From: Catalinimonas alkaloidigena
Lineage (GTDB): Bacteria; Bacteroidota; Bacteroidia; Cytophagales; Flexibacteraceae
Direction: 5' to 3'
Assembly: GCF_900100765.1 (NCBI RefSeq)
Contig: NZ_FNFO01000003.1
Location: 469,348 to 533,347 of the forward strand
DNA: 64,000 nucleotides
In this document: piece by piece, positions 12,950 to 34,777 of the stretch
Position numbering within the stretch: position 1 is the first letter of the stretch
Layout: each line of letters starts with the position of its first letter
Program-made: the position numbers and the translations under genes
Notes under the pieces: model-generated
Told to the model about the DNA's origin: nothing
Seen by the model: the letters and a program-made list of their open reading frames with translations, nothing else
The model's database searches: none

Positions 12950-15460
12950 TTGAAGCTTCGGTCCGCTTACAGACTGTTGGGATACGCGTCAGGCACACTG
13001 GTAGGACTGGTGGTGCTGCTCAGCGTGTTGCTCTGGGTGTTTCAGGACCGGATCATCGCCCGTTTCGTGACCGAAGCAAACCGCTACCTCACGTCCGAGG
13101 TGCATGTGGAGAAAATCGACATTTCGATCTGGAGCAAGTTTCCTCGCATCGCCCTCGATTTTGAGAACGTACTGATCAAAGGCAGCCTGCCCGACGCGCC
13201 CGAACCGCTGGCCAACGTGCGTCATCTGTACTTTACGTTCAGTCCGTTCAGCCTCCTGCGCGGGCACTACGAAGTGGAGCAAGTCTGGCTGGAAGGCGGG
13301 CAGGTCAGCGTCCGCGTCGACCGACAAGGGCAACCGAATTACAACATTTTCAAAACCGATACGACGGCGACCCCGGCCGCCGAACCGGTTCGCTTCAACA
13401 TCAAGCGCATCCAACTAAAAACGGTGCTGGTCGAGTACCTGCTGGAAGGCTCGCAACAGCACCACCGGCTGCTGGCCGAAGAGACCACCGCCCGGTTGAA
13501 TCTCCACGGCAATCAGCTGACGGTCGGCGTCGACGGCGGGCTGCTGGTGCATCAGATCGGAGTGGGCAAGGATATCTATTTCCGGGACAAACCCATGCAG
13601 GTGCAGTCAGAAATTCAGATGGACCTGGACAGTGGCCTTTACCGGGTGATGCCCTCGCGACTCCTGATCGACGGCGCCTCTTTTACGGTGGCCGGGCTGA
13701 TCGAAACCCACGGTGGTGTCTCGCTCGATCTGCACACGGAAGGAGAACGCGCCACGCTGCAAACCCTGACGTCGCTACTGCCGACTTCGATGACGGAGAA
13801 GTTGCGCGTCTACCGCAGTGAAGGCGAAGTGTATTTCGACGGGCGGGTGAAAGGCCACGTCACCGACACGCAAGCGCCGCTGCTCGATTTCCGTTTCGGC
13901 TGTCGCAACGCCTCGTTTTACCACCCGGACCTGAAGCAGCGCGCCACGGGCGTCTATCTGACCGGTTCGTTCACCAACGGAGCGCGGCAGCACCTGGCCA
14001 CCAGCGAATTGCGGCTGTCGGACGTGAAGGGTAATCTGGACGGCAAGCCGTTCACGGCCGATTTTCTGCTGCGCAACTTTGAAGATCCCTACGTCGAAAT
14101 GCGTCTGGACGCAACCCTCGACCTTGCCGCCCTTACGGCCTTCTATCCCGTCGACGAAATCAGGCAGGCCGGCGGCACCCTGGATGCAAACGTGGACTTC
14201 GCCGGGCGGCTGCGCGACCTGAAATCGGGCAAGCGCTCCAAACTGCGGGCCGAGGGTGAGTTGCAGTTCGATCAGGTGCACTTCCGCATGCGCGACAAGC
14301 CGTTGCAGTTTCAGGGCTGGAGCGGTCTGCTGGTAGTGAGCGGTCACGATCTGGCGGTGCAGGAATGCGTCGGGCGCATTGGCCGCAGTGATTTTGCGCT
14401 GGATGGCATTTTCAAAAATGCACTCGCGTTTCTGCTCTACAACGACGTTTCGCTGCACGCCGACGCAAGTTTTCGGTCTACGCTGCTCGATCTGGACGAG
14501 CTGCTGTCGGCTTCCGGACAGGCGGCCGCCGATCCGAAAAGCGGAGCAGAAGAAGAGTACCGCTTCAAAGTGGAGCCGCGCTTCTCGTGTGCGCTCGATT
14601 GCCACATCGAGCGGCTGGTGTTCCGCCGGTTCGACGCGCGGCGCATCGACGGCGACTTGCAGCTGCGCGATCAGGTAGGGCGCATCAACCGCGTGGCAAT
14701 GCAAATTGCCGGTGGGCAGATCAGCAGTTCGGTGGTGATGGACGCCCGCCAGCCGGAGGCCATTGAGGTGCAGGCACGGGGGCGCTTCGAACAGCTTCAC
14801 GCCGACAGTCTGTTCTACGTTTTCGAGAATTTCGGGCAGGACTTTTTGCAGGATCATCACCTGAAAGGAAGAATCACGTCGACCGTCAACGCGTTTCTGG
14901 TCCTGAACAGCCGGTTAGACATCGATACCGAGCGACTGGTGGCCGACGCCGACGTCACAATCCAGGACGGTGAGTTAATCAACTTCAAGCCCATGCAGTC
15001 GCTTTCGGCATTTCTGGACGATCGCCAGTTGGCCCACCTCCGGTTTTCGAAGCTGGAGAACCACCTGCGCATCGACCATAAAACGGTGTACATTCCTGAA
15101 ATGATGATCCGCAACAATGCCATGAGTCTCTCGATTGAAGGCACCCATACGTTCGATCAGGTGATGGATTACCGCATTGGCATTCCGCTGCACGACCTGA
15201 AACGCCCCGACCGCGACGCGATTTACGGCATGGTAGAAGACGACGGACTCCACTCGAATCTTTTCCTGACGCTCAAAGGCACGTCCGATAACTTCAAAGT
15301 AGGGTACGACACCCGGAAGGTGAAGCAGAAGATCAAAGAAGGCCTGAAGCAAGAAGCGAAAGAGTTCCGTGACCTGTTTGGTGGCAAACAGCAGGCCCGG
15401 CAGGCCGAACCCAAAGACACGACGAAAGCCGCAGACGAAGGCGAATTCTTCGATTTTTAG
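12950..15460 (+). CDS. AsmA-family outer-membrane biogenesis protein
   Basis: 836 aa with an N-terminal TM anchor and a long beta-rich repetitive AsmA-like body. The long minus-strand ORF 13775-14860 is antisense. Confidence 0.75.
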   Translation: MKLRSAYRLLGYASGTLVGLVVLLSVLLWVFQDRIIARFVTEANRYLTSEVHVEKIDISIWSKFPRIALDFENVLIKGSLPDAPEPLANVRHLYFTFSPFSLLRGHYEVEQVWLEGGQVSVRVDRQGQPNYNIFKTDTTATPAAEPVRFNIKRIQLKTVLVEYLLEGSQQHHRLLAEETTARLNLHGNQLTVGVDGGLLVHQIGVGKDIYFRDKPMQVQSEIQMDLDSGLYRVMPSRLLIDGASFTVAGLIETHGGVSLDLHTEGERATLQTLTSLLPTSMTEKLRVYRSEGEVYFDGRVKGHVTDTQAPLLDFRFGCRNASFYHPDLKQRATGVYLTGSFTNGARQHLATSELRLSDVKGNLDGKPFTADFLLRNFEDPYVEMRLDATLDLAALTAFYPVDEIRQAGGTLDANVDFAGRLRDLKSGKRSKLRAEGELQFDQVHFRMRDKPLQFQGWSGLLVVSGHDLAVQECVGRIGRSDFALDGIFKNALAFLLYNDVSLHADASFRSTLLDLDELLSASGQAAADPKSGAEEEYRFKVEPRFSCALDCHIERLVFRRFDARRIDGDLQLRDQVGRINRVAMQIAGGQISSSVVMDARQPEAIEVQARGRFEQLHADSLFYVFENFGQDFLQDHHLKGRITSTVNAFLVLNSRLDIDTERLVADADVTIQDGELINFKPMQSLSAFLDDRQLAHLRFSKLENHLRIDHKTVYIPEMMIRNNAMSLSIEGTHTFDQVMDYRIGIPLHDLKRPDRDAIYGMVEDDGLHSNLFLTLKGTSDNFKVGYDTRKVKQKIKEGLKQEAKEFRDLFGGKQQARQAEPKDTTKAADEGEFFDF

Positions 15461-15517
15461 CGAGTGGGCTGAACATCGTCCCCGGAGTGCGGGTTATACA
15501 GGTGAACTTTTTCGCCT

Positions 15518-16567
15518 GTGCAAACGCTCCAACCCCGTTACATTCTGTACACCCCCGACGCCCTCAACCACCGCGGCCAAGCCGTGCTGGAGCGTTACTC
15601 CGACGCCGAGCGCATCGTCATCAAGCAACACAACCGCCTGCCCGACCTGGGCCTGAAACACTTCCGTGCCAAGTCCGATCTGCTGGTGCTGGGCCGGCTC
15701 AAAACCCTCGTCAATAAAGATAACGGCCGCAGTGCCGATTACATCGCGCCGAGCTTAGCAAACGGCTGCTTTGGTGGCTGCACGTACTGCTACGTGGACC
15801 GGAACAAGCCCCTCAACCCGATTACGCTTTTCACCAACACCGAAGAGATTCTGGCCGAGGTCGACCGCCACGCCCTACACCTGCCCTGGCCGCGCGTCCC
15901 GGCGCAAACCGACCCGACGTTTTACGTGTACGACATCGGGTGTAACTCCGACGTCTCGGTCGATGCCCAACTGAGCGACGCCATACGCACCGCCGTCGCG
16001 TTTTTTCGCGCGCACCCGCGGGCCAAAGGCTCGTTTGCGACCAAGTTTGTGAACCGTGACTTGCTCACCTACGATCCGCAGCGCAAAACCCGCATCCGCT
16101 TTACGCTCCTGCCGCCGCACGTCAGCAAACTGGTCGATGTCCGTACCGATCCCGTCGCCGAACGGCTGGCCGCACTCAACGATTTTTACGACGCCGGTTA
16201 CGAAGTCCACGTCAATTTTTCGCCGGTGATTGTTTACGGGAATGCGGACGATCGCCAGGCGTGGCGACACGATTACCGCGCGTTGTTCCGGCAACTAGAC
16301 GCAAGCGTTCGGCCGGAGGTAAAAGCGCAGATGAAGTGCGAAGTCATTTTCCTGACGCACAACGTCGCGCAGCACGCCCTCAATCAGGAAATACATCCGC
16401 AGGGCGAGGCCTTGCTGTGGCGACCGGAGCTTCAGGAGACCAAAACCAGCCAGTACGGTGGAGAGAACCTCCGCTATCGCCACGACCTGAAACGGCAGAT
16501 GATCACGATTTTCCGGGAGCTATTGCAAGACGAGATTCCGTGGTGCGAAGTGCGTTACATTTTTTAA
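15518..16567 (+). CDS. Spore-photoproduct-lyase-family radical SAM protein (SplB-like DNA repair enzyme)
   Basis: 349 aa with a radical-SAM cysteine cluster (CFGGCTYCY) and SPL-family length and layout. Confidence 0.7.
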   Translation: MQTLQPRYILYTPDALNHRGQAVLERYSDAERIVIKQHNRLPDLGLKHFRAKSDLLVLGRLKTLVNKDNGRSADYIAPSLANGCFGGCTYCYVDRNKPLNPITLFTNTEEILAEVDRHALHLPWPRVPAQTDPTFYVYDIGCNSDVSVDAQLSDAIRTAVAFFRAHPRAKGSFATKFVNRDLLTYDPQRKTRIRFTLLPPHVSKLVDVRTDPVAERLAALNDFYDAGYEVHVNFSPVIVYGNADDRQAWRHDYRALFRQLDASVRPEVKAQMKCEVIFLTHNVAQHALNQEIHPQGEALLWRPELQETKTSQYGGENLRYRHDLKRQMITIFRELLQDEIPWCEVRYIF

Positions 16568-16857: not shown

Positions 16858-17931
16858 ATGGAAGATAAAAGAAAAAATTATCCCGGATATACACATGGAG
16901 AAGACGAGCTGCGCGCCACAAATGAAGCCCGCACCAACAGCCCTGAGAGCTACGAGGACGGCGGCATGAACGCGCAGGATCTCCAATCAAGCACTTCGGA
17001 TGGGCTAACGGCCAATCAGCCGATGGCCGAAACAGGGCAGTGGAAAACCGCTCCCGATGATTTGAATCCCGCACGACGCGATCAATCAGAAAGCGAATGG
17101 AATGAGCGTACGGACGATTACGCCAGCCGCGAGGACGCGAGCCTGGGTAACCAGCCGGCGCACGGATGGGACGAAACGCGTAACGACGTTAATCCCACAT
17201 CGACCAATCGTCTGGACGACCGGCCGGGCCACGTGGTGGGCGAAGGGTACAATCCAACGATGTCCAATGCCGCCCAGCAAAGCCACTACGCGGAAGTAGC
17301 GCGCGAAGCCAGCCGCGAAGCGTACGAAGCCAAAGATCCGGAGAACACAAATCCGGTGGGCCTTCATACGTCGGCTCATACCGAATTTATTGCGGGGAAT
17401 AACCCGGAGCCGGAGGTATTCTCGGCCATTTTTTACAATGCCGACCGCGCGGAAGATGCATACCGCCAACTGAAAAATCACGGTTACCGTGAGGATGAAA
17501 TCACGGTGGTTATGTCGAAAGACACCCGTGAGCGCCATTACAACGACGACCGTTACCACGATCCGGAAACTGATTTGGGCAATCGTTCGCTCGAAGGTGC
17601 CGGAGCGGGTTCGGCTATTGGGGGTACAATTGGGGCCATCGTCGGTGCCATTGCTGCCGTCGGGACCTCGGTAATTCTGCCGGGTGTCGGTCTGGTGATT
17701 GCCGGACCAATTGCGGCGGGTCTGGCCGGTGCGGGTGCCGGTGGACTGGCGGGTGGCATCATCGGTGCGCTGGCAGGTGCCGGAGTACCAGAAGAAAAAG
17801 CCCAGGTTTACGAGACGGGTATTAAGGAAGAAGGCGGTATTCTGATCAGCTTCAAACCGCACGGTCGCTCCGACGCCGAGCGATTCGAACGTGAGTTCCG
17901 GCAAATTGGGGGTGAGCACATCCACTATTAA
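16858..17931 (+). CDS. General-stress-protein-17M (YflT)-like protein with a long acidic disordered N-terminal region and a C-terminal glycine-zipper membrane segment
   Basis: 357 aa. The N-terminal roughly 190 aa is D/E/N/S/T-rich. A YflT-like core follows (VFSAIFYNADRAEDAYRQLKNHGYREDEITVVMS). Then a GxxxG zipper (GAGAGSAIGGTIGAIVGAIAAVG...AGLAGAGAGGLAGGIIGALAGAG). Confidence 0.5.
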   Translation: MEDKRKNYPGYTHGEDELRATNEARTNSPESYEDGGMNAQDLQSSTSDGLTANQPMAETGQWKTAPDDLNPARRDQSESEWNERTDDYASREDASLGNQPAHGWDETRNDVNPTSTNRLDDRPGHVVGEGYNPTMSNAAQQSHYAEVAREASREAYEAKDPENTNPVGLHTSAHTEFIAGNNPEPEVFSAIFYNADRAEDAYRQLKNHGYREDEITVVMSKDTRERHYNDDRYHDPETDLGNRSLEGAGAGSAIGGTIGAIVGAIAAVGTSVILPGVGLVIAGPIAAGLAGAGAGGLAGGIIGALAGAGVPEEKAQVYETGIKEEGGILISFKPHGRSDAERFEREFRQIGGEHIHY

Positions 17932-17954: not shown

Positions 17955-17982
17955 AGGTCGGGTTTGTAACCCGGCCTTTTTT
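17955..17982 (+). terminator. Rho-independent terminator
   Basis: GGTCGGGTT-tgta-AACCCGGCC followed by T7, 25 bp after the stop at 17931. Confidence 0.6.
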
Positions 17983-18230
17983 TATGCCCTTCGCAGAAGG
18001 GGAGTAAAGTAAAAGCGCCGTAGGAACGTCTTCTGGTAAAGAGGGAAAGACTACCGAGGGTAGATCAAAACCCCATTCATCAAACAAGAGCAACACAACT
18101 ATTACAAAAGATAGCAATGCTATTATATCCTCTGCCATTCACATAGCTTTCAAACCGGTCTTCCTGTTCTGATACCGCTATTGAAGTATCGCCTACATTC
18201 TGCTGGAATCTTCGTTAACTTGAGTGAAAT

Positions 18231-18238
18231 TAATTTTG
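18231..18238 (+). promoter_or_regulatory. Bacteroidetes-type -7 promoter element (TAATTTTG) upstream of the 18260 operon
   Basis: TAnnTTTG consensus located 22 bp upstream of the ATG at 18260. Confidence 0.3.
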
Positions 18239-18259
18239 ACATCGTTTTCTGCACGCGCT

Positions 18260-19957
18260 ATGAACGCTCGACTTTTCCATCTTCCGATTCCTCGTTCGCT
18301 GGGCCTGTTGCTGCTGTGCTGCCTGGGTCTGAATCCGGCGGGGTGGGCGCAGCAGGTAGAAACCCTGACGGCGAAACCGCTTTCGCAGGCGATCAAGACG
18401 CCCCTGCGGCCCGTGCCGGAATACCGGTCGGTGCAGTTACCTGTGGTCACCCGGGGCGGCGATCTGGTACCTATTCTGGCCGAAACCGAAGGGCTTTTTG
18501 CACGCCAGAACGCTCAGGTAACGTTGGTGCGCGAAGACGATTTTCGCAAGCAGGTAGAAGCCAGCCTGTCGGGCCGAACGCCGTACGTGCGCGGTACGTT
18601 AGGGATGATCACGGCCGCCGCGGAGGCTTTTCAGGCCCAAGGTGGCGATCTGGTGGTGATTTATCAGCTCACGTGGTCTGCCGGCGGCGATGCCCTGGTG
18701 GTACGGGCCGATTATGACCTGAAAGAGATTAAGACGCTGGCTGCACCGCTGTACGGCCCCGCAATGGACTATTTGCCGCACCTGTGGCAAGACAAGGCGC
18801 TGAAAAGCACCAAGATCCGCTGGGTGGCTGAACCTACGCTGCCCGGTTATGCAACGCCGGGAAAAGTGGTAGACCCAGCTTCGGTATTTCAGGCCGATCC
18901 GACACTCGACGCGGCGCTGTGCCTGTTGCCCGATGCCCTGATGCTGACCTCGAACGGTACAATCGGAACCGGAGCCGAGGGGTCGGTCAAAGGTGCGACG
19001 TTGCTGCAATCGACCCAAGCCGACGCCAAAGTGATTGCGGACGTGTATGCGGTACGGAAAGATTATCTGGAACAACATCCGCAGGAGGTGGCCCGACTGG
19101 TGCAGGCGCTGATGGAAGCCGAAACGCGTTTGGAAGCGTTGGCAAAAACCCCGACCGATCCGGCCTACCGCCGTTTGCTGACCACCACCGCACAGCACTT
19201 GTTCGGCACAGCGCACGCAACGGCCGAGACCGAAGAGTTGTGGAACGGCTACCAGTTTGTCGGTCGTGAAGAGAACCAAACGTTCTTTACAGGGCAGGAT
19301 AGCCTGATAAGTCCGTTTCAACAGCACGTCGTTGCGCTACAGCCGGGCTTGCAGGGATTGGGCGTGGTGGCCAAACCGGTGACGTTGCAGGCTGCTCCCT
19401 GGGAATATACCCGAGACGGCGTTCGGTACGCGGTTCCGGTGGTGGCAACACCAGCGGCCGATACGGTAGCGCGTCAGGACAGCGCCGTTGCTCCGGCAAC
19501 CGCAACGGTCCAGGCGCCCACCCCGAACACGGCAGCGGCTCCGCCCGGCGAGCTGGAAATTTATTTCGCGCCGAACGAACGCACCTCCGACAAAACCTAC
19601 ACGGACGATTTCCGGCAGGTACTGGCCATGACCCGTGCGTTTCGGAACCCGGTCGTCAAGATCGAGGGCCACGCAGATCCGCAAGGCATCCTGAAGGCCA
19701 AAGCCGAAGGCGCTTCGGAGCAGCAGTTGAACACGCTGAAGCAGCGGGCCAAGAACCTTTCGTACGTTCGGGCAGAGCAGATCCGTGCACAATTGCTGGA
19801 CTATGCGCAGACGCAAAATCTGCCCCTCGATCAGGAGCGGGTGGTGGCCATCGGCGAAGGCGTACAGCACCCGAAATACGAGTCGCCGAAAAACGAAGCG
19901 CAGTGGCAAGCCAACCGGCGGGTGGTGTTTCGGGTAGAAGAAGCCGCTGTACAGTAA
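18260..19957 (+). CDS. Periplasmic solute-binding-like domain fused to a C-terminal OmpA-like peptidoglycan-binding domain
   Basis: Real start is probably the ATG at 18260 (MNARLFHLPIPRSLGLLLLCCLGLNPAGWAQQ signal), not 18224. The C-terminal roughly 130 aa are OmpA-C-like (VVKIEGHADPQG...LSYVRAEQIRAQL...NRRVVFRVEE). Confidence 0.6.
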   Translation: MNARLFHLPIPRSLGLLLLCCLGLNPAGWAQQVETLTAKPLSQAIKTPLRPVPEYRSVQLPVVTRGGDLVPILAETEGLFARQNAQVTLVREDDFRKQVEASLSGRTPYVRGTLGMITAAAEAFQAQGGDLVVIYQLTWSAGGDALVVRADYDLKEIKTLAAPLYGPAMDYLPHLWQDKALKSTKIRWVAEPTLPGYATPGKVVDPASVFQADPTLDAALCLLPDALMLTSNGTIGTGAEGSVKGATLLQSTQADAKVIADVYAVRKDYLEQHPQEVARLVQALMEAETRLEALAKTPTDPAYRRLLTTTAQHLFGTAHATAETEELWNGYQFVGREENQTFFTGQDSLISPFQQHVVALQPGLQGLGVVAKPVTLQAAPWEYTRDGVRYAVPVVATPAADTVARQDSAVAPATATVQAPTPNTAAAPPGELEIYFAPNERTSDKTYTDDFRQVLAMTRAFRNPVVKIEGHADPQGILKAKAEGASEQQLNTLKQRAKNLSYVRAEQIRAQLLDYAQTQNLPLDQERVVAIGEGVQHPKYESPKNEAQWQANRRVVFRVEEAAVQ

Positions 19958-19983
19958 CGTGAACCACAAAGCAACGAACGACC

Positions 19984-20775
19984 ATGCGTGTCATTTTCAA
20001 AATATTTTTCGTCCTGTTGGCCATCCGGCTTTTTACCTGCGAAGGCAAGGTGAAGCGCGACGTCGCCGAATTCGGGCGCGATTTTGTCCCCAAGCCCAAG
20101 GTTGAGGAAGTGAGCGGGGAAGATCTCTCCGAAGAAACACCCCCTCCGACCGACGCTTCGCCGCTGCTTGCCGCCAACTACTACTTCATCTTCGACGGAA
20201 GTGAGAACATGGAAGAACGGTGTGCCGGACAGGAGAAACTCCGCAGTGCCCAGCGGGCCGCGCAGGAACTTATTGAGCAGGTGCCGGACGATGCCAACAT
20301 GGGCCTTTTGGTATTTGACGACCATCGCGACCGAGGAGAAGCGTTTACCGAGCCGGTTGCTTTGGGTCCCGACAACCGGAAAAAGATGAACCGCGCCCTT
20401 CGCCGCATCGACGCGGACGGCAACTCGTCGCTACGCGAAGCCATCTACCAGGGCGTCAACCAACTGGAAGAGCAGTCGAAAAAGCAACAGGGCTACGGCG
20501 AGTATCACCTCGTCATCATCACCGACGGGCAGGACATTGGCTTGGAAGACGCCGCCCGCTACGCCGTAGAGAAAGGCATTGCCATCCATACGGTGGGGCT
20601 GTGCATCGACCGGGAGCATCCGTTACGAACGTACGCGCTCTCGTTCCAAAATGCCAACGAACGCACCGATTTCACCCTTACGCCGGAAGCGGAGCGGGTA
20701 GAGCCTGAAACGTTCGAACCAATTGATACCAAAACGCTGGTGGCGGAAACTCAAACGCCGGCCACCGCCGAATAA
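19984..20775 (+). CDS. von Willebrand factor type A (vWA) domain protein, probable lipoprotein
   Basis: 263 aa. The lipobox-like segment is LFTC. vWA/MIDAS elements are FIFDGSENM, LLVFDD, NSSLREAIYQG and LVIITDGQD. Confidence 0.8.
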   Translation: MRVIFKIFFVLLAIRLFTCEGKVKRDVAEFGRDFVPKPKVEEVSGEDLSEETPPPTDASPLLAANYYFIFDGSENMEERCAGQEKLRSAQRAAQELIEQVPDDANMGLLVFDDHRDRGEAFTEPVALGPDNRKKMNRALRRIDADGNSSLREAIYQGVNQLEEQSKKQQGYGEYHLVIITDGQDIGLEDAARYAVEKGIAIHTVGLCIDREHPLRTYALSFQNANERTDFTLTPEAERVEPETFEPIDTKTLVAETQTPATAE

Positions 20776-20794
20776 CACTAGTTTGCAGCAGATC

Positions 20795-22042
20795 ATGAAA
20801 AAGTGGTTAGGTCCTTTTGCGGTATTTATGCTCATCACGTCAGGCATGGGTGCCTGGTGGTACGGACGACGCATTCTGTTCGAGCAAGAGCAGATCGCCA
20901 CGTCGGACGCCGTCGGCCACATCGAGCACCTGCGCATCGCGGGCGACCATCAGCCGGGGTATTGGTTTCTCCACTCCCCCCAGATGAAAGCCCGGCAGGC
21001 GCGCAGCGGACAGGCCATCGACTTCACGACGAGCCACGGCGACTATGCCGCACAATTGCAAAGTCTGGTCGACGGAACACAGGATGCGCTGGTCATGCCG
21101 GTGGAATCGTATCTGAAGTACGGTAGCGGGTTCGACTACCCGGGCGTGATTGTCGCCAGTCTATACGGCCCGCGCACGGCCCAGCCGGACGCCCACCCGA
21201 CGGCCCAGCAGCAAACCAGCGACGCGCATGTAGAGGTAATTCAAACCAGCACGAATGCCATCGAAGTACCTACGCTGACGGTATTGGTCGTAAACCGGGA
21301 AACCGTTTCGCAGAAACCCGGGCAGGTTAAACTGCTTCTGAAAAATTATTTCCAGACCCTGGACTACTATACCGGCCATCGCGACGAGTTCGTGCAGGCC
21401 CTGGTGCAGGAAACGGAAATGACTCCGCAGGAAGTAGAAAAATTTCTGGCCCGGACCGACTGGTACGACCTGCGCGAAAATAGCTACGAGTTGTTCGGCG
21501 TGAGCCGCAACCCGGCGGAAGGGCAGCCTAATAAACTGGTCAGTACCCTGGTGCAACGTAATTCGAGCGTCGATCCGTACCGGCTGATCAACAGCAACTT
21601 CTTACGGGAACTGCTGAACAGCGAGGCCACCACCTTCACGGCCCTGACCGAAGAAGCGTGGGCGCAGCTGACCACCACGACGGTTCTCGACGCGGCTCCG
21701 GTGATTTTCCAGCGCAGCACAGACGAGCTAGACTACGAAGACGAAGTATTGATCGATCAGGTTGCCGAGCGCGTGAAACAGGAGTACCCGGGTTACCGGC
21801 TGATCGTACGCGGCCATACGGGACTAGGCGACGAAGCGGCCAACCTGATTTTGTCACAACGCCGTGCCGAGAAAGTGCGGGCGCAGTTGATCAGCCGTGG
21901 GCGGCTGGACGCCAATCAGTTGCACGCGGAAGGCGTAGGGGCCACACAACCGCCCACGCGCCAGGCCGACGAATCGGAGCGGGCGTACCGCCTGCGGATG
22001 CCGCGCGTAGAATTTATTCTGGCACAGGCCAATCCTCTCTAA
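20795..22042 (+). CDS. Membrane-anchored protein with periplasmic domain and C-terminal OmpA-like domain (architectural paralogue of the 18260-19957 protein)
   Basis: Real start is probably the ATG at 20795 (MKKWLGPFAVFMLITSGMGAWWYG, a TM helix), because the listed ORF overlaps the upstream vWA gene. The C-terminus is OmpA-C-like (YRLIVRGHTGLGDEAANLILSQRRAEKVRAQL...RVEFIL). Confidence 0.6.
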   Translation: MKKWLGPFAVFMLITSGMGAWWYGRRILFEQEQIATSDAVGHIEHLRIAGDHQPGYWFLHSPQMKARQARSGQAIDFTTSHGDYAAQLQSLVDGTQDALVMPVESYLKYGSGFDYPGVIVASLYGPRTAQPDAHPTAQQQTSDAHVEVIQTSTNAIEVPTLTVLVVNRETVSQKPGQVKLLLKNYFQTLDYYTGHRDEFVQALVQETEMTPQEVEKFLARTDWYDLRENSYELFGVSRNPAEGQPNKLVSTLVQRNSSVDPYRLINSNFLRELLNSEATTFTALTEEAWAQLTTTTVLDAAPVIFQRSTDELDYEDEVLIDQVAERVKQEYPGYRLIVRGHTGLGDEAANLILSQRRAEKVRAQLISRGRLDANQLHAEGVGATQPPTRQADESERAYRLRMPRVEFILAQANPL

Positions 22043-22045
22043 ACC

Positions 22046-22897
22046 ATGTCAAAACGAACTTCACTTTATAAACCAAAATCCGTTGACGAGGTCTTCAAAC
22101 CCGTCACGTACGCCGACCTCAGTCCGGGAGCGTTGCGCCGGGCCCGACGCCAGCATGCGTTTGGCCACTGGACATTCCGCTACTCCCTGGTGGCGGTAGC
22201 CTCCTCTTTAGTGGCGATGGGCTTGTTCGGCATGTCGGAAATCCTGTTCTTTCTGGCGGCTTCCTCCTCTACGCTGAGTGCAGCGTCGGTTTCGTGGAAT
22301 TACCTGGCGAATCCCGATGAGGTGGAAAGCCGCTACGTGGAGCGTATTCAGCGCCAGTTGGCACAACAGACGCAGGAACGTCGAACCCAATTGCGTGCTT
22401 ACCTGACCGAGTACAACGGACAGCGTGGCCTGGTGCAAATGGAGTCGTTACAAAAGCAGTTCGATGCACTGGTGGAAATGCTTCAGACCAAGTTCGAAAC
22501 CACGGAGCTGACGTACCAACGCTACTACGGCATTGCCCAGGAGGTTTTTCTGGCCTCGATCGATAACCTCTCGGAAGTAGCGCTTTCGTTGCAAAGCATT
22601 GACGGCATCGACGTATTTGAGATTCAGCGTCGCCTCAAAGCGCCCATCCTGATGCCGGGCGAGCGGGAGGCGCTGCAAAAGCGGCTGGCCCTATACGAAG
22701 CCGAAAAGCGGGACATCGAACAACGCTACCTGGAAAACGAACGGGCGCAAACGCAGATCGCCGAGACGACGGTCGCCATCTCGAACATCGACGTCAGCAA
22801 TAAAGAGGCACGCCTCACGATGGAAGAAGCCATGCGCGAGCTGGTCGAACTGACCAAGCGCGCTCACGAATACTCTACGCCCAAGGTCAGTGCTTAA
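22046..22897 (+). CDS. XpaC-like membrane/coiled-coil protein (TelA partner)
   Basis: 283 aa. Two N-terminal TM helices followed by a long coiled coil. It lies immediately upstream of TelA with a 4-bp gap from the preceding gene, the arrangement I recall for xpaC with a TelA-family gene (yaaN) in Bacillus. Confidence 0.4.
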   Translation: MSKRTSLYKPKSVDEVFKPVTYADLSPGALRRARRQHAFGHWTFRYSLVAVASSLVAMGLFGMSEILFFLAASSSTLSAASVSWNYLANPDEVESRYVERIQRQLAQQTQERRTQLRAYLTEYNGQRGLVQMESLQKQFDALVEMLQTKFETTELTYQRYYGIAQEVFLASIDNLSEVALSLQSIDGIDVFEIQRRLKAPILMPGEREALQKRLALYEAEKRDIEQRYLENERAQTQIAETTVAISNIDVSNKEARLTMEEAMRELVELTKRAHEYSTPKVSA

Positions 22898-22957: not shown

Positions 22958-24148
22958 ATGGCAACGCAACCCAATAAACCCGTCAAACCTGTGGAACCCG
23001 AATTTGAGGAACTGAATTTCGAGCCGGAGCGTCCCATTGACCCGGAGCTGGATAAAAAGGCAGATGAGTTTCTGACGCAGCTGCTGAGCGACGAAACGGC
23101 CAGCAACACCAAGCGCCGGGCTGTCGACGAGATGGGGACGCGCACGCAACAGGAAATTACGAACCTCAGCAAAATGCTGGAAGGGCCGATCAAAACCCTG
23201 GCCGAAACCGGCGACAACGGGGGACCGGTGGCCAAGTCGCTCATCGACCTGAAAGAACAGGTAGAAGACCTCGATCCGGCCAAGTTCGATTTTTCCAGTC
23301 CGTCGGGGTTTATGGCGAGTTTCGGCAAAATGCTACCGGGCAAAAAGAATCGCATGGGACGCTACTTTGCCAAGTATCAGTCGGCCGAGGCGGTCATCGA
23401 TCAAATCATTAAATCGCTGGAACTGGGCCGCGACCAACTGCGCCGCGACAACATCACCCTTTCGCACGACCGCGACCGGATGGTAACGGCGATGGATCGG
23501 CTGGAACGCACGATTCAGCTCGGTCAACTGCTCGACGACAAACTCCAGTATAAACTGGACCGCGACCTGGCCTCGGATGCCGATCAGCATCGCTTTGTGC
23601 AGGAAGAACTCCTATTCCCCCTGCGTCAGCGCATCATCGACCTGCAGCAAACGCTGAACATCAACCAACAGGGCATCCTGACCATCGAAGTCATCATCCG
23701 CAACAACCGCGAACTGATGCGCGGCGTAGGCCGGGCGCTGAACGTCACGGTGACAGCCCTGCAAACCGCGATTGCGACCGCGTTGGCACTGAACAATCAG
23801 GAAATTGTGATGAAAAAGATCAACGCCTTGAACGACACTACGTCGAAGTTGATCGCCCACAACGCCGAACGTCTGAAAACCCAGGGTGCTGCTATTCACA
23901 AGCAGGCCTCCGAATCGATGCTGAGCATGGAGCAATTGGAAAAAGCGTTTCAGGACATCCGGACCGCGCTGGAAGACATCTCCAAGTTCCGGCAGGAGGC
24001 GCTGCCCAAAATGGCGACGCAGATCAGCCGCATGGACGAACTCAACAAAGAAGCCGCCGACACGCTGCGCCGAATGGCCCGCGGCAACCAGGCCCAGACC
24101 GAGATGATCATCGACCTCGACGCCGATCAGTACGAAGTAGGGAAGTAG
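22958..24148 (+). CDS. telA: TelA/KlaA-family toxic anion resistance protein
   Basis: 396 aa, all helical, with the length and pattern of the TelA family. Confidence 0.75.
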   Translation: MATQPNKPVKPVEPEFEELNFEPERPIDPELDKKADEFLTQLLSDETASNTKRRAVDEMGTRTQQEITNLSKMLEGPIKTLAETGDNGGPVAKSLIDLKEQVEDLDPAKFDFSSPSGFMASFGKMLPGKKNRMGRYFAKYQSAEAVIDQIIKSLELGRDQLRRDNITLSHDRDRMVTAMDRLERTIQLGQLLDDKLQYKLDRDLASDADQHRFVQEELLFPLRQRIIDLQQTLNINQQGILTIEVIIRNNRELMRGVGRALNVTVTALQTAIATALALNNQEIVMKKINALNDTTSKLIAHNAERLKTQGAAIHKQASESMLSMEQLEKAFQDIRTALEDISKFRQEALPKMATQISRMDELNKEAADTLRRMARGNQAQTEMIIDLDADQYEVGK

Positions 24149-24225: not shown

Positions 24226-24870
24226 TTACGCCATATTTTCGCGAATCTCCTCCTCGGTCACCAGAGCGCGCCAAGCAGGATCGGATGGAAAGCCGCCCTC
24301 TGCACAATTATGGATGTCAATCGTTTCATCCTCCCCAGAAGGTTCAAATAAGTCTAACTGCTTTTCACGCACATACGCTTCGCGGGTAGCATACTCCTGG
24401 GCAAGCTGTTCATTCCATACGTCCGAACCACAGCTCAGGCATTTATGGCTCGTTACGGCGAGTAGCCCACACACGTCACAGCCCGCTAACGAAGCAAAGA
24501 ACTGCTTCACCCCTCCGTAATCGTAACCTGGATACCCGACTGGTACTTGCTGCACCAACGCATACCAGCCGCTATACTCATTCGGGATTTCCAGGTACAC
24601 GCTACCGTTTCTGATCAGCACCAATTTTTCCGGAGAAAAATGGATGTCCTCAAGCCTTCTCCACACCACATCATGCTCCACCGAACCGTCGTCCAGTTTT
24701 TCAACTCGAAAGCCATGAGCTGTGATGCTGATCTCACGCATCTCGCGAAGTCTCTCCCGAAACATCTGACTGATCTGTTTTTTGCTTGGAAGCAGGAGCC
24801 AGCGCCAAAAGCGTTTCATCATATGCGTGTTCCGGTTTAAGCGAAAAGAGTGGTAAAAATACAGGGACAC
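24226..24870 (-). CDS. Hypothetical protein with C4 zinc ribbon (CDVCG...CLSCG). Lower GC than its surroundings.
   Basis: 214 aa. The start is probably the internal MMKRFWRW near 24822. A 4-bp gap to the upstream gene suggests co-transcription with the giant ATPase. Confidence 0.45.
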   Translation of the reverse strand: MSLYFYHSFRLNRNTHMMKRFWRWLLLPSKKQISQMFRERLREMREISITAHGFRVEKLDDGSVEHDVVWRRLEDIHFSPEKLVLIRNGSVYLEIPNEYSGWYALVQQVPVGYPGYDYGGVKQFFASLAGCDVCGLLAVTSHKCLSCGSDVWNEQLAQEYATREAYVREKQLDLFEPSGEDETIDIHNCAEGGFPSDPAWRALVTEEEIRENMA

Positions 24871-24873
24871 ACG

Positions 24874-25434
24874 TTATCCCAGGTCTATGACTTGCTTGCT
24901 GGCCATGTAGTGAAATTCTCGCTCAAGCTCGTACTTCATCTTTTTCACACTCCGCCGCATCATCAGGTAAGGCATGCCGAACATCAACGACGCGTGAAAG
25001 AGAATGAAGGGTAGAAACACGAATGATCCCGGTCCATTTCCGTCATCCATAAATAGCATGGAGAAAATGAATACGGAATACATAATGAAGCCAATCACAT
25101 AGAAGGGAATCATCATTCTCTTGAATCCATCCACTTCGGTCTCAATCACTACGTACTCTCCGCTTTGTCGGAACGTGCCTTTTGCCAGGGCACTCATCCC
25201 TACCTCGAAAAGCCTTTTACGCCTTTTTATCTTAAATTCCGACCTGCCTACGTGTCCTTTGTACTCGTTTTTACTGGAGGACAAAACATCGAAGGCCCCG
25301 GAAAAGGCACTGGTATTGCCTTCGTCCACATGCTTCCTTAACCTGGCGACAAACTCCTTTTGAGAGATGGCGACTTTTGTCGAGAAAGAATCGACTAAGC
25401 CTAGCTTTTTCAAAAAGGGTGATATTGAATCCAT
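24874..25434 (-). CDS. Hypothetical small membrane protein (two C-terminal TM helices). Lower GC than its surroundings.
   Basis: Real start is the ATG at 25434 (MDSISPFLKKLGL...), 186 aa. The upstream part of the listed ORF is Arg/Pro-rich read-through. Hydrophobic helices are MMIPFYVIGFIMYSVFIFSMLF and SFVFLPFILFHASLMFGMPYLMM. Confidence 0.5.
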   Translation of the reverse strand: MDSISPFLKKLGLVDSFSTKVAISQKEFVARLRKHVDEGNTSAFSGAFDVLSSSKNEYKGHVGRSEFKIKRRKRLFEVGMSALAKGTFRQSGEYVVIETEVDGFKRMMIPFYVIGFIMYSVFIFSMLFMDDGNGPGSFVFLPFILFHASLMFGMPYLMMRRSVKKMKYELEREFHYMASKQVIDLG

Positions 25435-25517
25435 AACTGCTTTGTCCTGGAAGAAAGCCGTACCACTTCTACCTGAGCGCGAGAATAGAAGTGGTACAGC
25501 TAAATTTTTACCGGTTA

Positions 25518-28500
25518 CTAGTTGCCGTTGCGGCCGAGGGCTTCTCCGATGCGCTGGATGCCTTCGGCGAGGACTTCCATCTGGGCGACAACCTGGCTGA
25601 CGCCATTTCCCCCAAGGCCTTTCAGGCGGTTGTTCTTCACAAACTGGGTTTTGATGGCTTCCCAGCGTGCGTTCTCCTCGGAGGTGATCCAGCCGAGCAT
25701 TTCCTTCCACTTGAGCAGGTTCGCTTCGGCACCCTGCGTCAGGGTTTGCGCTTCCTGTTCATAGTGCGAACGCAGCAGGGTCTTCAGTTCGTCGTCGTTC
25801 ATCACGGGCACCACCTTTTCGGCCAATTTGTTCATGTCGCGGTACGAGCCCTGAAGCTTGAACGGCGGTTCGGTGCGGTACTCGTCGGCCTGCGCAGCGG
25901 AGTGGATGTATTCCTGGTTCACGCGCAGAAGCACGTCGCGCACCTGCACGAGTTTGCGCAGCACGTTGACGTATTCGTTGATTTCCTCGGGCGTATGATT
26001 CGCCTCGAACTCCAGTCCTTCTTTGCTGCCCGTTGCGGCAATGCGCAGGAGTGGGAACAGGTCGGCGGTACTTTTGGCGGCCAGCTTCTGAAGCGTCGGG
26101 TTGGCCATCAGGCTGTTTTCCAGGTAGCTCAACTCAAATGCCTCGTCCGAATCCCCGATGATGTCGCCCAGGTTGTAGATGTCGGCCCGGTTGGCCAGCA
26201 TGTCGGGAATCTGAAACTGGTCGCCGCTTTCCGTGTACGGGTTTCCGGCCATCACCACGGCCACCTTCCGCCCCCGCAGGTCGTAGGTCCGGCTGCGGCC
26301 CCTGTACACACCCTCGATTTTCCGTTGCGCGTCGCACAGGGAGATGAATTTTTGCAGGAACTCCGGATTCAGGTGCTGGATGTCGTCCAGGTAGAGCATC
26401 AGGTTATCGCCCATTTCGAGCGCGAGGTTTAGCTTCTCCAATTCCTCCCGTGCCGATGCATTGGGAGCGGTTCCCGGATCGAGCGAGACGACCTGATGCC
26501 CAATGGCCGGTCCGTTGATCTTCATGAACACCAGCCCTAACCGGCTGGCGATGTATTCCATCAGCGTGGTTTTCCCGTAGCCGGGAGGCGAAATCAATAG
26601 CAGCATGCCCTGGCGGTCGGTCCGTTTCTGGTCGCCGGCCGCGCCCAACTGCTTCGCGAAGTTGGTGCCGATCAGGGGCAGGTAGACTTTGTCGATCAGG
26701 CGGTTGCGGACAAACGAGGTCAGCACGCGGGGCCGGAAGGAATCAAGCCGCAGTTCGTGTCGGAAGTCTTCTGTCAGTTGCTTTTTCAGTGCCACGAACG
26801 CTTGGTACTGCGGCACGGTTTCCCGTTCGAAGGTGCGGAGCCGCTGCGAAAAATCGTGATACTGTAACGTATACGCGCCATTGTCGAGGACAGCGTGCGT
26901 GCCTTGCAATCCTGACAGCGCCGTTTCGAGCGAGGCTTCGATGACTTTCGCTTCGCCCGCCGGGTTGGCGAATAACTGCACGGCAACTTCGTCTACATAC
27001 CCCCGCTGCTCCCCTTTCCCGGTGTGGTCCAGAAAGGCCCGTAACCATTTCCGGATCAGTTTGAAGCGGGCGGCGGGTGACGCGGCCAGCGCCTCGACCG
27101 AAGTCTGATACGCGGCTTCGGCCTTCACCTGTTTCAGGTAAGCTGCGAAATCACGACGCAATTGGGCGGCCGCGCCTTCGGTCACGAAGGATTCGTCACG
27201 GGCAATTTCGTGCAACAGATACGCGCCGGCCTCTTCGGCCCAAGTCTCCGCAAACAACTGGTGCTGCTGCGCAAAGGCACGTAATTCGGTCTGCAATTCT
27301 TCAATCATCCCGTCGAACTCGTGCGTATCGGGAAAGACCTGTAGAATTACGCCGATGCCTTTCAGGCGGTGGTGCCAGACGGATTTTTCCTTTTCGGCCA
27401 TGAAGCCCTGCCAGTACAAGGCAGCCATGGCACGGGCGGACGAAGGGTAGCGCAACAAGTCGATGTGCTGGTCCAGTTGCCGCAGCGCCTGCAACAGCAG
27501 GAGCGCGTCCTGATCGTGCACGCCTTTGACGTAGCCTTCCTGCGGGTGGTTGGCGACGTACTGTTGCACCGCTTCTGCCAGCGTGTCGTCCGACAGCTGG
27601 GTCTGCTGAAACAGTTGCCAGGCCAGGTACTCGGCACGGTACACCCGCGCATTTTCCGACACCAGGGTCTGGTCCCACGCCTCGCGGGTTGCCAGAAAGG
27701 CCGGATCGGTGATGGGCTGGAAGAAGTTGGTGCCGGTCAGGTGAAACTGTAGCGTCCCGTCGCGCGGCACGAGCGTCAGGTCCAGCGGCTGCGTATTGAC
27801 GGAGAAGTGATGCTCGCCGAAGCGAATTGTATCTGCGCCGCCGACAAATAATTCCTGCCGGTCTTTCAACTGACGGGCGGCATCTTCGCGCACCGTTTTC
27901 AGGCGACTCAACACGTCATCGGCCTTGACCGAATCGCCCAGTTCCTGCAACTGCTGCGCAAACTGCCGCACCTTATCGACCATCAGGTCGGCGGCAAAAT
28001 AGCCGTTGATCTCCGCGATGGAGGCGAAGCTCGACACCCGGTTCTGAATGCCTTTCAGCACCCGCTCGGCCGATTGCCGCAGGGCCTCGGCCCGACGGTT
28101 GCGGGTTTCGATTAGCGCGACCTTCTTCGACTCGAACGTGTTGTAGAGTTCTTCGCGCTTCTCGGTAATCTTCTCAATAAAATCCTCGAATTCCACGAAG
28201 CGGCCTTCCAGTTCCTCCAGTTGAATCAGGAGTTTGGTGAGGTATTCGTCGCACCGCTCGGGCGTCTGGCTGGCGTCGAGGTAATTTGTGACGCTCTGGT
28301 CGATCAGCTTCAGTTGCGCCGCAAATTCGGCCCGTCCTTCCTGCCCACGCAGCTCTTTCCGCTTCCGCTTCAGCGCGGCCCGCAACTGATTCAAGTGGGC
28401 GTATAAGGTCGAAATGCGGTCGATGATCTGCGTGGTTTGTGTCGCGTCCTCGATTTTCAGGTTACTCACCACTTCGATCAGCAGATCCAGTTCATGAGCG

Positions 28501-30443: not shown

Positions 30444-30480
30444 CCCCTTAGAAGGAGGTGGCCGCAGGCCGGGGGATGTC
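30421..30480. repeat. Perfect 24-bp inverted repeat (GACATCCCCCGGCCTGCGGCCACC / GGTGGCCGCAGGCCGGGGGATGTC) with a 12-nt spacer
   Basis: Read directly from the sequence. It generates mirror-image ORF starts (MAAGRGM...) on both strands. It lies 6 bp after the DUF559 stop and overlaps the nominal ATPase start. Confidence 0.85.
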
Positions 30481-30485
30481 CCAGA

Positions 30486-30854
30486 CTACGGTTGATTTCT
30501 CTCTATCCAATCAAGAATGGTGTCAATCACCAGTTTCATATCTCGCTTGGGCTCCCGATCGTCGAAACGTAAGAAGCGCACTCCTAGCCGCTCCAGTTGC
30601 TGCTGACGCTTGGCATCTACTCGCTCTCGTCCCTGATGACTACTTCCGCCAATTTCCAGAGCCAGTTGCAATTCGTGACAATAGAAGTCAACGATAAAAT
30701 GGTCGATAGGCACCTGTCGGTGAAATTCCCAGCCCAACTGCTTTCCTTTGATCTGCTGCCAGAGCAATACTTCTGAAAGCGTGCTGTGTTTCCGCAGAAA
30801 ACGCGCGAGTCGCTTTAAGTAGGGACGGTACGGAATGATCGAATTTCGAACCAT
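30486..30854 (-). CDS. DUF559 endonuclease-domain protein (Vsr-like fold)
   Basis: 122 aa with the hallmark DUF559 motifs (SEVLLWQQIKGKQLGWEFHRQ ... DFYCHELQLALEIGGSSH). Confidence 0.75.
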   Translation of the reverse strand: MVRNSIIPYRPYLKRLARFLRKHSTLSEVLLWQQIKGKQLGWEFHRQVPIDHFIVDFYCHELQLALEIGGSSHQGRERVDAKRQQQLERLGVRFLRFDDREPKRDMKLVIDTILDWIERNQP

Positions 30855-30911
30855 ACAAAAAACCGGCAGGCAGATGACCTACCTGCCGGTGAAGTTTACG
30901 AAGTCAGAATT

Positions 30912-33089: not shown

Positions 33090-33094
33090 GAGCT

Positions 33095-33730
33095 TCAGAG
33101 TTTATAAGGATCAATGAGATAATACTTTTTATCGGGCTGATACTCAATGACCAGCGCCGTTTCTCCCTTAGGCACTACTTTACCTTCGGGCGTACGAACA
33201 AAGAGTTTGATAGGAGAGCTTTTTCCTTCTACCACGGCTTGGCCACCGTGCTGATGATCGATGGTTCCCAACGTGCGGCAGATTTTCCCGATGACGGTGG
33301 TATCTTCTTCCTCGTCCATGTGCTCGAACACCTTGACAAAAGGCCAGGTAAGAAACTTGGCAATGAACAGGCTAGCGATCAGCACAGGCAGCAGAAAGAT
33401 CAGCGAAACGGCAAACGACGTGTTGCTTACGTAATGGTTCGCCAGAACCGAACCAGCCCATAAGGGAAGCGCCAGGAAGGTGAGAAACACCATCAACGGC
33501 ACTTTCCCCAGGTTGAAGAAGGCCAGAACATGGTTCAGCCACATCAGCGAACTGCCGCCGTCTACATCTACATCGGCGTCGGCATCCACGTCCACATCGA
33601 CGTCAATGTCGATCGAATCCAGGTCCACCATTCCAATCAGCGTGACCAGCCAGTATCCTATGACAAACAGGAGCAGAAAGGTCGGGATGATGTTGACCGA
33701 CGAAAAGGAGGCGTCAACTAATTCTTTCAT
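33095..33730 (-). CDS. NfeD/YqiJ-like inner-membrane protein (flotillin partner) with an acidic D-x repeat linker
   Basis: Real start is the ATG at 33730 (MKELVDASFSS...). Multi-TM N-terminal half, a DSIDIDVDVDVDADADVDVD linker, and an OB-fold-like C-terminus (GGQAVVEGKSSPIKLFVRTPEG). It abuts the flotillin gene with a 5-bp gap. Confidence 0.65.
   Translation of the reverse strand: MKELVDASFSSVNIIPTFLLLFVIGYWLVTLIGMVDLDSIDIDVDVDVDADADVDVDGGSSLMWLNHVLAFFNLGKVPLMVFLTFLALPLWAGSVLANHYVSNTSFAVSLIFLLPVLIASLFIAKFLTWPFVKVFEHMDEEEDTTVIGKICRTLGTIDHQHGGQAVVEGKSSPIKLFVRTPEGKVVPKGETALVIEYQPDKKYYLIDPYKL
33561..33628. repeat. Short tandem GTCGAC/ATC-type hexamer-like repeats encoding (D-V/I/A)n
   Basis: A direct-repeat tract inside the NfeD-like CDS. 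Confidence 0.55.
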
Positions 33731-33859
33731 GGCGATCGATCCGTGTAGGTGTGAGATAATGATCGGCCGCTGCGATGGTACCACACAACGGCCGTCGAAA
33801 ATAGCGCAGAAGGCGGCACGAAGCCCAGTGCCTGGCACCTGAACTCCGTACCTTTTTCT

Positions 33860-34588: not shown

Positions 34589-34777
34589 GGTCGTAGAGTT
34601 ATGAGGTGGAAAGATGGATTTTGTGCGTTTGATGAATTGAATATACAATCAGATCTTCCACAATTTCCAGCGTGTAAGAAATAAGCGGCGTTAGACTTAG
34701 ATGAAAGGAAGCCGGCATGGACAAGCGGCGAACCTAAACTATTAAACACAATAGCATTACTATCAATCAGGCAGCAT

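Follow-up and report, generated by a model that had tools for sequence, protein, structure and literature searches.

The DNA analysed here (the window) is a stretch of 64,000 nucleotides (nt) from contig NZ_FNFO01000003.1 of Catalinimonas alkaloidigena. In this window three adjacent genes, here named A, B and C, encode two proteins with an OmpA-like C-terminal part and, between them, a von Willebrand factor A (vWA) lipoprotein, and they are followed by gene D and by a gene of the TelA family. Together these genes make up a five-gene operon, which is a reduced copy of an eight- or nine-gene cluster conserved in other bacteria. An earlier note on this DNA had drawn attention to the trio, and its three open reading frames (ORFs) are found on the + strand where they had been placed, with the motifs IEGHADP, VRGHTGLGD, NRRV and RVEF that it quoted. 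Hidden Markov model (HMM), profile and fold matches bear out its outline of two flanking proteins, each with a solute-binding-like part and an OmpA-like end, around a vWA lipoprotein.

Gene order and proteins of the operon

The five ORFs (Table 1) all lie on the + strand and the gaps between successive genes are of 26, 19, 3 and 60 nt. A hairpin with a T-run is present at about 17957-17987, at the end of the gene upstream of A, and the genes downstream of TelA are placed on the opposite strand. Given these flanks and the short gaps, A-B-C-D-TelA reads as one operon. The sequence TAATTTTG upstream of gene A may be a counterpart of the Bacteroidota TAnnTTTG -7 consensus. A sigma-70 promoter scan gave no match and terminator matches were at chance level. 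Rfam searches of the window and of seven related loci gave no riboswitch match, neither to the guanidine classes nor to any other.

Table 1. Positions in the window of the features of the A-B-C-D-TelA operon and of the genes that follow it.
Feature	Position	Strand	Description
Candidate -7 promoter box TAATTTTG	18233-18240	+	Putative, Bacteroidota type; read from the sequence, ~20 nt upstream of the start codon (ATG) of gene A
Gene A	18260-19957	+	Secreted protein, 565 residues: signal peptide, TauA/SsuA-type fold, linker, divergent OmpA-like domain
Gene B	19984-20775	+	vWA lipoprotein, 263 residues, lipobox-like ...LFTC at Cys19
MIDAS motif of B	20194-20208	+	D-G-S-E-N, family D-x-S-G-S
Gene C	20795-22042	+	415 residues: N-terminal membrane anchor, shortened TauA/SsuA-type fold, canonical OmpA-like domain 305-397
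Deletion site in C	21155-21262	+	Window residues ~121-155 stand where relatives have ~105 conserved residues
Gene D	22046-22897	+	283 residues: short N-terminus, hydrophobic hairpin ~46-90, long C-terminal coiled coil
Gene E (TelA family)	22958-24148	+	396 residues, no membrane segment predicted
Cys-rich ORF (CxxC...CxxC) between TelA and the giant ATPase	24226-24870	-	No Pfam or NCBIfam family
ORF with two C-terminal hydrophobic segments	24874-25710	-	No Pfam or NCBIfam family
DUF3686/DUF7902 AAA+ ATPase	25518-30443	-	1641 residues; 1.5e-188
N-terminally anchored protein	30912-33089	-	725 residues; no Pfam match
YqiJ-like protein	33095-33838	-	Three transmembrane segments; weak match
PspA/IM30	33860-34648	-	Pfam 1e-39

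The product of gene A is 100% identical to a Catalinimonas alkaloidigena protein annotated by NCBI as 'OmpA family protein'. It has a signal peptide (...AGWA/QQ), a binding fold (residues ~35-390), a disordered linker (393-427) and an OmpA-like domain (~431-561). In Pfam this last domain scores 22.8 bits against OmpA (PF00691), which is under the cut-off of 27.2, and some relatives of A carry a precomputed PF00691 match. The profile of the A family matches the solved OmpA-like domain of A. baumannii Omp38 (3td3) with an E-value of 2.7e-4, and this alignment pairs the Asp of GH(S/T)D and the Arg of LSxxR. In the A. baumannii OmpA structures the Asp of GHTD and the Arg of LSxxRA contact the peptide stem. 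Both residues are kept in window A (GHADP...LSYVRA); D473 and R504 are invariant in a 24-sequence alignment of the A family, and D473 is nearly invariant in one of 120 sequences. This is a large and strongly conserved family: it exceeds 1,000 clusters at 90% identity, and the mean column identity is 62-67%.

The N-terminal or central parts of A and C had been taken for periplasmic-binding or unknown globular domains. HMM searches return matches to models of the NMT1/SsuA class for both proteins, but these are sub-threshold and the scores lie far under the cut-off of every substrate-binding protein (SBP) family; in window A the NMT1_2 match reaches 21.8 bits and the NMT1_2/SsuA matches are short. 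An AlphaFold model of window A, computed with the 120-sequence alignment as input, has a mean predicted local distance difference test (pLDDT) of 84.9 and presents a two-lobed N-terminal fold, the linker and a C-terminal alpha/beta domain. Its best matches among solved structures are TauA (Foldseek E 1.5e-11, template modelling (TM) score 0.71), followed by CmpA/NrtA, Thi5 and SsuA. As modelled, window A has the two-lobed type II periplasmic binding fold of the NMT1/SsuA/TauA class.

Gene B encodes a protein with a vWA fold (Pfam VWA, PF00092, 2.9e-13, 50.8 bits for a threshold of 23.8). Its N-terminus reads MRVIFKIFFVLLAIRLFTC, with a lipobox-like ...RLFTC, and almost all its relatives have a lipobox Cys preceded by G, S or A after a hydrophobic stretch; the lipobox was called by eye. 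The vWA assignment of the earlier note thus stands, but the metal ion-dependent adhesion site (MIDAS) that it had included is altered, with DGSEN instead of DxSGS. The site of window B is D71-G-S73-E-N75, where Ser occupies position 75 in 78 of 79 sequences; a Ser is also found at the position of Thr148, and D181 is retained. Judged from these residues, the DxSxS...T...D motif of the relatives is absent from window B.

The OmpA-like domain of window C is clearly recognised by Pfam (51.7 bits, cut-off 27.2), and a comparison of this part of the C family with solved OmpA domains gives 4e-15; the match of window C to SsuA_fam is sub-threshold (6.5e-11). The model of a full-length relative, P0002 (pLDDT 87), has a membrane helix at residues 5-36, then a TauA/SsuA-like fold (TM 0.82-0.83 to TauA, 0.79-0.80 to SsuA) and an OmpA-like domain. 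Window C lacks about 105 conserved residues, equivalent to ~125-230 of P0002, which span the strands and helices from E130 to E232. By the secondary-structure elements of the P0002 model, the deleted residues are the second lobe of the binding fold. Window C does not have the two lobes of a type II binding fold and, with one of them gone, it cannot be expected to close on a ligand.

That A and C are paralogous, as had been proposed, is not seen by BLASTP (E 0.025, in the OmpA part alone) but is supported at the profile level, where hhalign aligns the two families with a probability of 96% (E 3.4e-9, 13% identity), collinear over 431 columns.

The TelA label of the downstream gene is confirmed by a match to PF05816 at 1.2e-74 (251.8 bits, threshold 30). 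TelA, the 'toxic anion resistance' protein, is widespread and has envelope-stress phenotypes; in Listeria it has been tied to envelope-stress tolerance, including that of envelope-active agents (PMC12791056). Gene D had been called XpaC, a name that no Pfam or NCBIfam HMM supports. D has no family match in either database: XpaC (PF10112) is missing both from the Pfam matches reported for window D (E up to 1) and from the 25 commonest Pfam families over 20 members of the D family, and NCBIfam gave no XpaC match for window D and one relative.

Conservation of the cluster and divergence of the window copy

Relatives of A are encoded at 347 places in a collection of one genome per species. These span Bacteroidota, Acidobacteriota, Desulfobacterota (cable bacteria included), Poribacteria, cyanobacteria/Melainabacteria, Nitrospinota, KSB1 and others. 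To compare gene order, ORFs were called in 84 fetched loci and searched with phmmer against the window proteins and the neighbour genes of two relatives; the comparisons below cover 85 loci, that is, the window and these 84. A is followed by B and then C on the same strand in 70 of the 72 loci with enough sequence, which belong to about ten phyla.

Two arrangements are found. In type 1 (30 loci) the order is A-B-C-D-TelA-sbp-perm-atp, and in type 2 (30 loci) it is A-B-C-X310-Y272-sbp-perm-atp-AAA, where X310 and Y272 are proteins of 310 and 272 residues, the latter a coiled-coil protein, and the final AAA+ ATPase gene was found in 22 loci. This ATPase (AAA574) matches the CdvC/Vps4 models, CdvC at 4.6e-9, and also CDC48. 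The genes sbp, perm and atp encode an ATP-binding cassette (ABC) importer, and 44 of 52 loci contain them. With 30 loci holding D and TelA and 30 holding X310 and Y272, the trio is thus kept independently of TelA. This is the opposite of the lack of conservation that would have spoken against the proposal of the earlier note. We consider it very likely that the window genes belong to this conserved cluster.

D and X310 are one family (hhalign 99.9%, E 1e-36). TelA and Y272 show no homology (hhalign 0.3%), so that their exchange is a displacement and not a divergence. Y272 has a PspA_IM30 match, at 2e-4, in one of 23 members; its hhalign probability is 2% with the PspA of the window and 1.8% with X310. 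Scanned against Pfam, 20 members of the D family and 21 of the X310 family gave no match to XpaC, Snf7 or PspA, and profile searches of the PDB with Y272, TelA and D returned coiled-coil noise alone.

Some loci deserve separate mention. Locus L074 (9812-21035) is a hybrid, in which A-B-C-D are followed by a TelA-like protein of very high divergence (E 9e-7) and by a type-2-like AAA+ ATPase; no ABC genes were detected in it, and the locus may stand midway between types 1 and 2. Two scaffolds of the Acanthopleuribacter pedis genome (L042 and L069) carry the same nine-gene cluster with identical match coordinates and scores; either the cluster was duplicated recently or the assembly contains it twice. 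In the Ca. Electrothrix locus L068 (12615-12660, - strand) there is an Rfam match to the small RNA Acido-Lenti-1 (45.2 bits, gathering score 37), antisense in the 5' part of the C-family gene; the window and six other loci yielded no equivalent.

The importer of the relatives is of the NitT/TauT type, with an NMT1-type binding protein, a BPD_transp_1 permease and an ABC_tran ATPase. Its SBP matches NCBIfam TIGR03427, 'putative urea ABC transporter substrate-binding protein', over the full length (481.9 bits, cut-off 333.9), and the NCBI names of its homologues agree with this label. It is also distantly homologous to the binding folds of A (94%) and C (96.7%), so the full system has three binding modules that are paralogues of one another, and in two of these an OmpA-like domain is fused to the fold. 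SBP homologues with 62-66% identity in Adhaeribacter and Flavobacterium (loci L085 and L086) adjoin a catabolic carboxylase cluster, with a urea/guanidine-carboxylase-type biotin carboxylase, an allophanate hydrolase and two DUF1989 genes. The NitT/TauT-family SBP GimA of Synechocystis binds guanidine with a dissociation constant of ~97 nM (PMC12704784). Taken together, these neighbours, the TIGR03427 match and the analogy with GimA suggest a urea- or guanidine-like solute. In both L085 (12867-13838) and L086 (12829-13800) the gene immediately after the homologous importer is deoxyhypusine-synthase-like (PF01916).

The window copy differs from this pattern in several respects. No homologue of the importer SBP, permease or ATPase was found anywhere in the 64 kb. 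Window A ends just past the last OmpA strand, where every other locus has an acidic tail VEAELxEFxPL or a variant of it, and both the DGSEN metal site and the tail-less A were seen in the window alone among the 85 loci. When columns conserved in at least 90% of the sequences of each family are counted, the window deviates in 68 of 204 for A, 11 of 37 for B and 70 of 160 for C, the family medians being 5, 0 and 2, and it is the most deviant member of all three families. D (2 of 25) and TelA (4 of 76) are inside the normal range of their families. The identities between the window and locus L001 are 43% for A, 41% for B, 41% for C, 46% for D and 68% for TelA, whereas those between L001 and L014 are 65, 59, 61, 45 and 62%, respectively. 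By these figures the evolution of the trio has been much more rapid in this genome than that of D and TelA. Judged on its sequences, the window copy is an outlier among the 85 loci, a stripped-down and unusually divergent version of the cluster.

Such a pattern could mean that A, B and C of Catalinimonas are decaying remnants with no function and that D-TelA alone is in use. This would account for the extreme deviation of the three proteins, for the loss of a fold lobe, of the MIDAS serine and of the conserved tail, for the importer missing from the locus and for the normal conservation of D and TelA. Nevertheless the 3.8 kb of the trio contain no frameshift or internal stop, the spacing of the genes is still tight, window A is predicted to fold (pLDDT 84.9) and keeps many invariant residues of its family, and the OmpA-like part of window C is well above its threshold. 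We regard simple decay as an unlikely explanation.

Possible roles and comparison with known systems

The reading that we favour, holding it with about equal measures of belief and doubt, is that the full system is a wall-fixed scaffold working with an importer, of which the solute side has been lost or changed in the window. Our doubt attaches mainly to the mechanism and much less to the place of these genes in the cluster. A would be secreted and C held in the inner membrane by its N-terminus, and both would dock on peptidoglycan via their OmpA-like domains, with C linking the inner membrane to the wall. A, C and the MIDAS-bearing lipoprotein B would then form a periplasmic scaffold fixed to the wall, in which the MIDAS site of B would bind an acidic residue of a partner. 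This scaffold would capture or sense a small solute, probably urea- or guanidine-like, alongside the ABC importer. D, with its two-transmembrane hairpin and cytoplasmic coiled coil, may couple the scaffold to TelA or, in type 2, to the coiled-coil protein and the Vps4-like ATPase, and either pair would be an arm that protects or remodels the membrane from its cytoplasmic face. In the window the importer is absent, C has lost a lobe, the metal site of B is altered and the tail of A is missing, which suggests that the solute role has probably been lost or changed there. What remains would either anchor the well-conserved D-TelA pair to the wall as a scaffold or consist of genes on which selection is relaxed.

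Several points weigh against this reading. Peptidoglycan binding, ligand binding and contact among A, B and C are steps that we infer. The OmpA-like domain of the A family is divergent, with a long helical insertion, and the C family has GHTG-x-GD, a Gly replacing the Asp of the peptidoglycan-binding GHTD motif, although it retains the Arg of LSxxRA. The binding loops of A and C differ from those of the importer SBP. Eight other loci with no adjacent ABC genes keep intact A, B and C, so that missing adjacency alone leaves the divergence of the window copy unexplained. In addition, the window ORFs of A, B and C are unbroken and the model of window A is a confident one, so the three proteins may have changed function rather than lost it. 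Finally, the importer of Catalinimonas could lie elsewhere in the genome; no Catalinimonas protein was present among the best 120 of more than 7,000 matches of the SBP search.

The same parts can also be read as a sensor of envelope geometry or stress, in which wall damage or a change in the distance from membrane to wall is relayed by D, and TelA or the coiled-coil/AAA+ pair responds by stabilising the membrane. C would span from the inner membrane to the wall, A and B would sit on the wall or the outer membrane, and the binding folds would be regulatory or ligand-gated modules like the regulatory domains of NrtC and CmpC. The membrane anchor and OmpA-like domain of C are in keeping with this, as are the envelope-stress phenotypes of TelA, its exchange with a coiled-coil protein and a Vps4-like ATPase, and the fact that D and TelA are the best conserved genes of the window operon despite the absent importer. 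SBP-like regulatory domains of CmpC and NrtC are also among the fold matches (9uak, 8wm7), and another membrane-stress operon (PspA/DUF3686) adjoins. However, a complete importer lies within the cluster in 44 of the 52 loci, its SBP is 62-66% identical to those of catabolic urea/guanidine clusters, which argues for real transport, and the cluster has no conserved signalling output domain such as a kinase, sigma or anti-sigma factor. We consider this sensor role doubtful.

MotB- or ZorB-like stator anchors were among the systems of which the trio had seemed reminiscent. C resembles MotB/PomB/ZorB and TssL-type anchors in topology, with a membrane helix at its N-terminus and an OmpA-like domain at its C-terminus. 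Unlike them, C has a 330-residue binding fold between the helix and the OmpA domain and is without a gene for a channel partner, and no acidic residue occurs in the helix that anchors window C. As no MotA/ZorA-type gene was found among the Pfam-annotated genes at loci of two kinds of relatives, and the ZorB matches are weak and in the OmpA part alone, the likeness to a stator is not upheld. PADLOC gave these matches with E-values of 2e-3 to 1e-2, and 3e-4 for P0002. They could also be taken as a sign that the cluster serves in phage defence or conflict and uses a ZorB/MotB-like anchor, the more so as the AAA+ ATPase of type 2 weakly matches the TRIP13 and IetA models. Such a role is highly improbable: the called genes of two relatives' loci include no ZorA/MotA-type partner, nuclease or other effector, PADLOC gave no match for B, D, TelA or the SBP, and the cluster is chromosomal, syntenic across phyla and equipped with an importer of metabolic type.

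A Bat-type complex of MoxR and vWA proteins was also considered and rejected. Neither the window operon nor the loci of relatives contain a MoxR AAA+, a DUF58 or a transmembrane-anchored vWA gene, and B is a lipoprotein and not of the anchored BatA/B type, which disposes of the resemblance suggested in the earlier note.

The closest description that we found is that of Ravi et al. 2024 in mSystems (PMC11237479), where PspA and a membrane-anchored divergent Snf7 occur with a double AAA+ ATPase in operons that also hold an ABC ATPase, a permease and a PBPb+OmpA protein (example OGG56892.1). The authors propose wall binding and solute trafficking linked to membrane remodelling (PMC11237479). Their class and our type 2 both fuse a periplasmic binding fold to an OmpA-like peptidoglycan-binding domain and both have an ABC permease and ATPase, transmembrane-anchored and cytoplasmic coiled-coil proteins and an AAA+ ATPase. 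Their combination of a binding protein fused to OmpA with an ABC permease and ATPase is present in 44 of 52 relatives' loci and not in the window. The example has a single binding protein of the PBPb (amino-acid) type and another gene order (PMC11237479), whereas the cluster described here has two OmpA-fused paralogues of the NMT1/TauA type, a third, free SBP and a vWA lipoprotein that is always present, and half of the loci use TelA instead of the coiled-coil protein and ATPase. Neither vWA nor TelA is mentioned in that work (PMC11237479). Concerning its parts related to the endosomal sorting complex required for transport III (ESCRT-III), D/X310 are not confirmed as Snf7-like nor Y272 as PspA-like. 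The theme of the cluster was thus partly anticipated in 2024, and type 2 fits that description in theme.

Other resemblances are more limited. In the XpaC-TelA (YaaN) pairs of Firmicutes, such as lmo1966-lmo1967 of Listeria, a small membrane protein gene directly precedes the TelA family gene, as here; the likeness is in layout alone, since the portion of text cited for this pair describes no A-B-C trio or importer. The NitT/TauT importers for urea- or guanidine-type solutes (TIGR03427; GimABC of Synechocystis) share the fold class of A and C, but canonical ones have one free or lipid-anchored SBP and no OmpA-fused paralogue, vWA protein or TelA. Our literature search found no description joining TelA, vWA, OmpA and ABC/SBP; the 2012 work of Anantharaman, Iyer and Aravind on Ter/TelA was outside its coverage, and an earlier mention is possible.

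We are tempted to extend the scaffold-and-importer reading one step further, to a proposal that we rate as improbable: the A-B-C-D core and the importer would be an undescribed trans-envelope machine that couples the reading of a periplasmic solute to membrane remodelling via D. Two wall-docked Venus-flytrap paralogues and the MIDAS lipoprotein would read or capture a guanidine- or urea-like chaotropic nitrogen compound, and TelA would stand in for an ESCRT-III-like coiled-coil protein and its Vps4-like ATPase by non-homologous displacement, in the ratio 30:30 seen among the loci. As a subsidiary idea, the acidic C-terminal tail of A may be the ligand of the MIDAS site of B, the window being without both.

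If this were true, TelA would gain a concrete role. Its constant gene context in any case offers partners that can be tested: the vWA lipoprotein, the pair of binding proteins anchored to the wall, the coiled-coil protein in the membrane and a defined ABC importer. Its alternation with a coiled-coil protein usually accompanied by a Vps4-like ATPase is an equivalence that can be tested. Assigning OmpA-fused binding proteins to the cluster would also correct their labels, which in hundreds of genomes are given as 'OmpA family' or 'nitrate ABC transporter substrate-binding', and the cluster extends the observation of 2024 that bacterial membrane-remodelling proteins can be wired to solute transport and the cell wall. 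The Catalinimonas copy is a natural partial knock-out: with the importer gone, A, B and C degraded and D-TelA intact, it suggests that D-TelA can work without the rest.

Neighbouring genes

Upstream of A, an ORF at 16858-17931 (+ strand) encodes an acidic low-complexity protein of 357 residues with a weak match to YflT (heat-induced stress protein) and a Gly-rich hydrophobic segment; it is not kept beside A at other loci. Further upstream, at 12950-16567 (+ strand), are the genes for an 836-residue AsmA/DUF748-like protein and a radical SAM protein resembling spore photoproduct lyase (PF20903, 3.5e-34), which are apparently unrelated to the A-TelA operon.

On the other side a convergent operon (25518-34648, - strand) lies beside the TelA operon and contains genes for PspA/IM30 and a giant DUF3686 ATPase (Table 1). 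It matches the operon of PspA, band-7/flotillin, YqiJ and beta-propeller-AAA+ proteins described by Ravi et al. 2024 (PMC11237479). This neighbourhood was found in none of the 84 other loci and for this reason we do not count it in the A-TelA system. Between TelA and this operon are two ORFs, the second of which (24874-25710) overlaps the 3' end of the ATPase gene, and therefore its true start is probably later.

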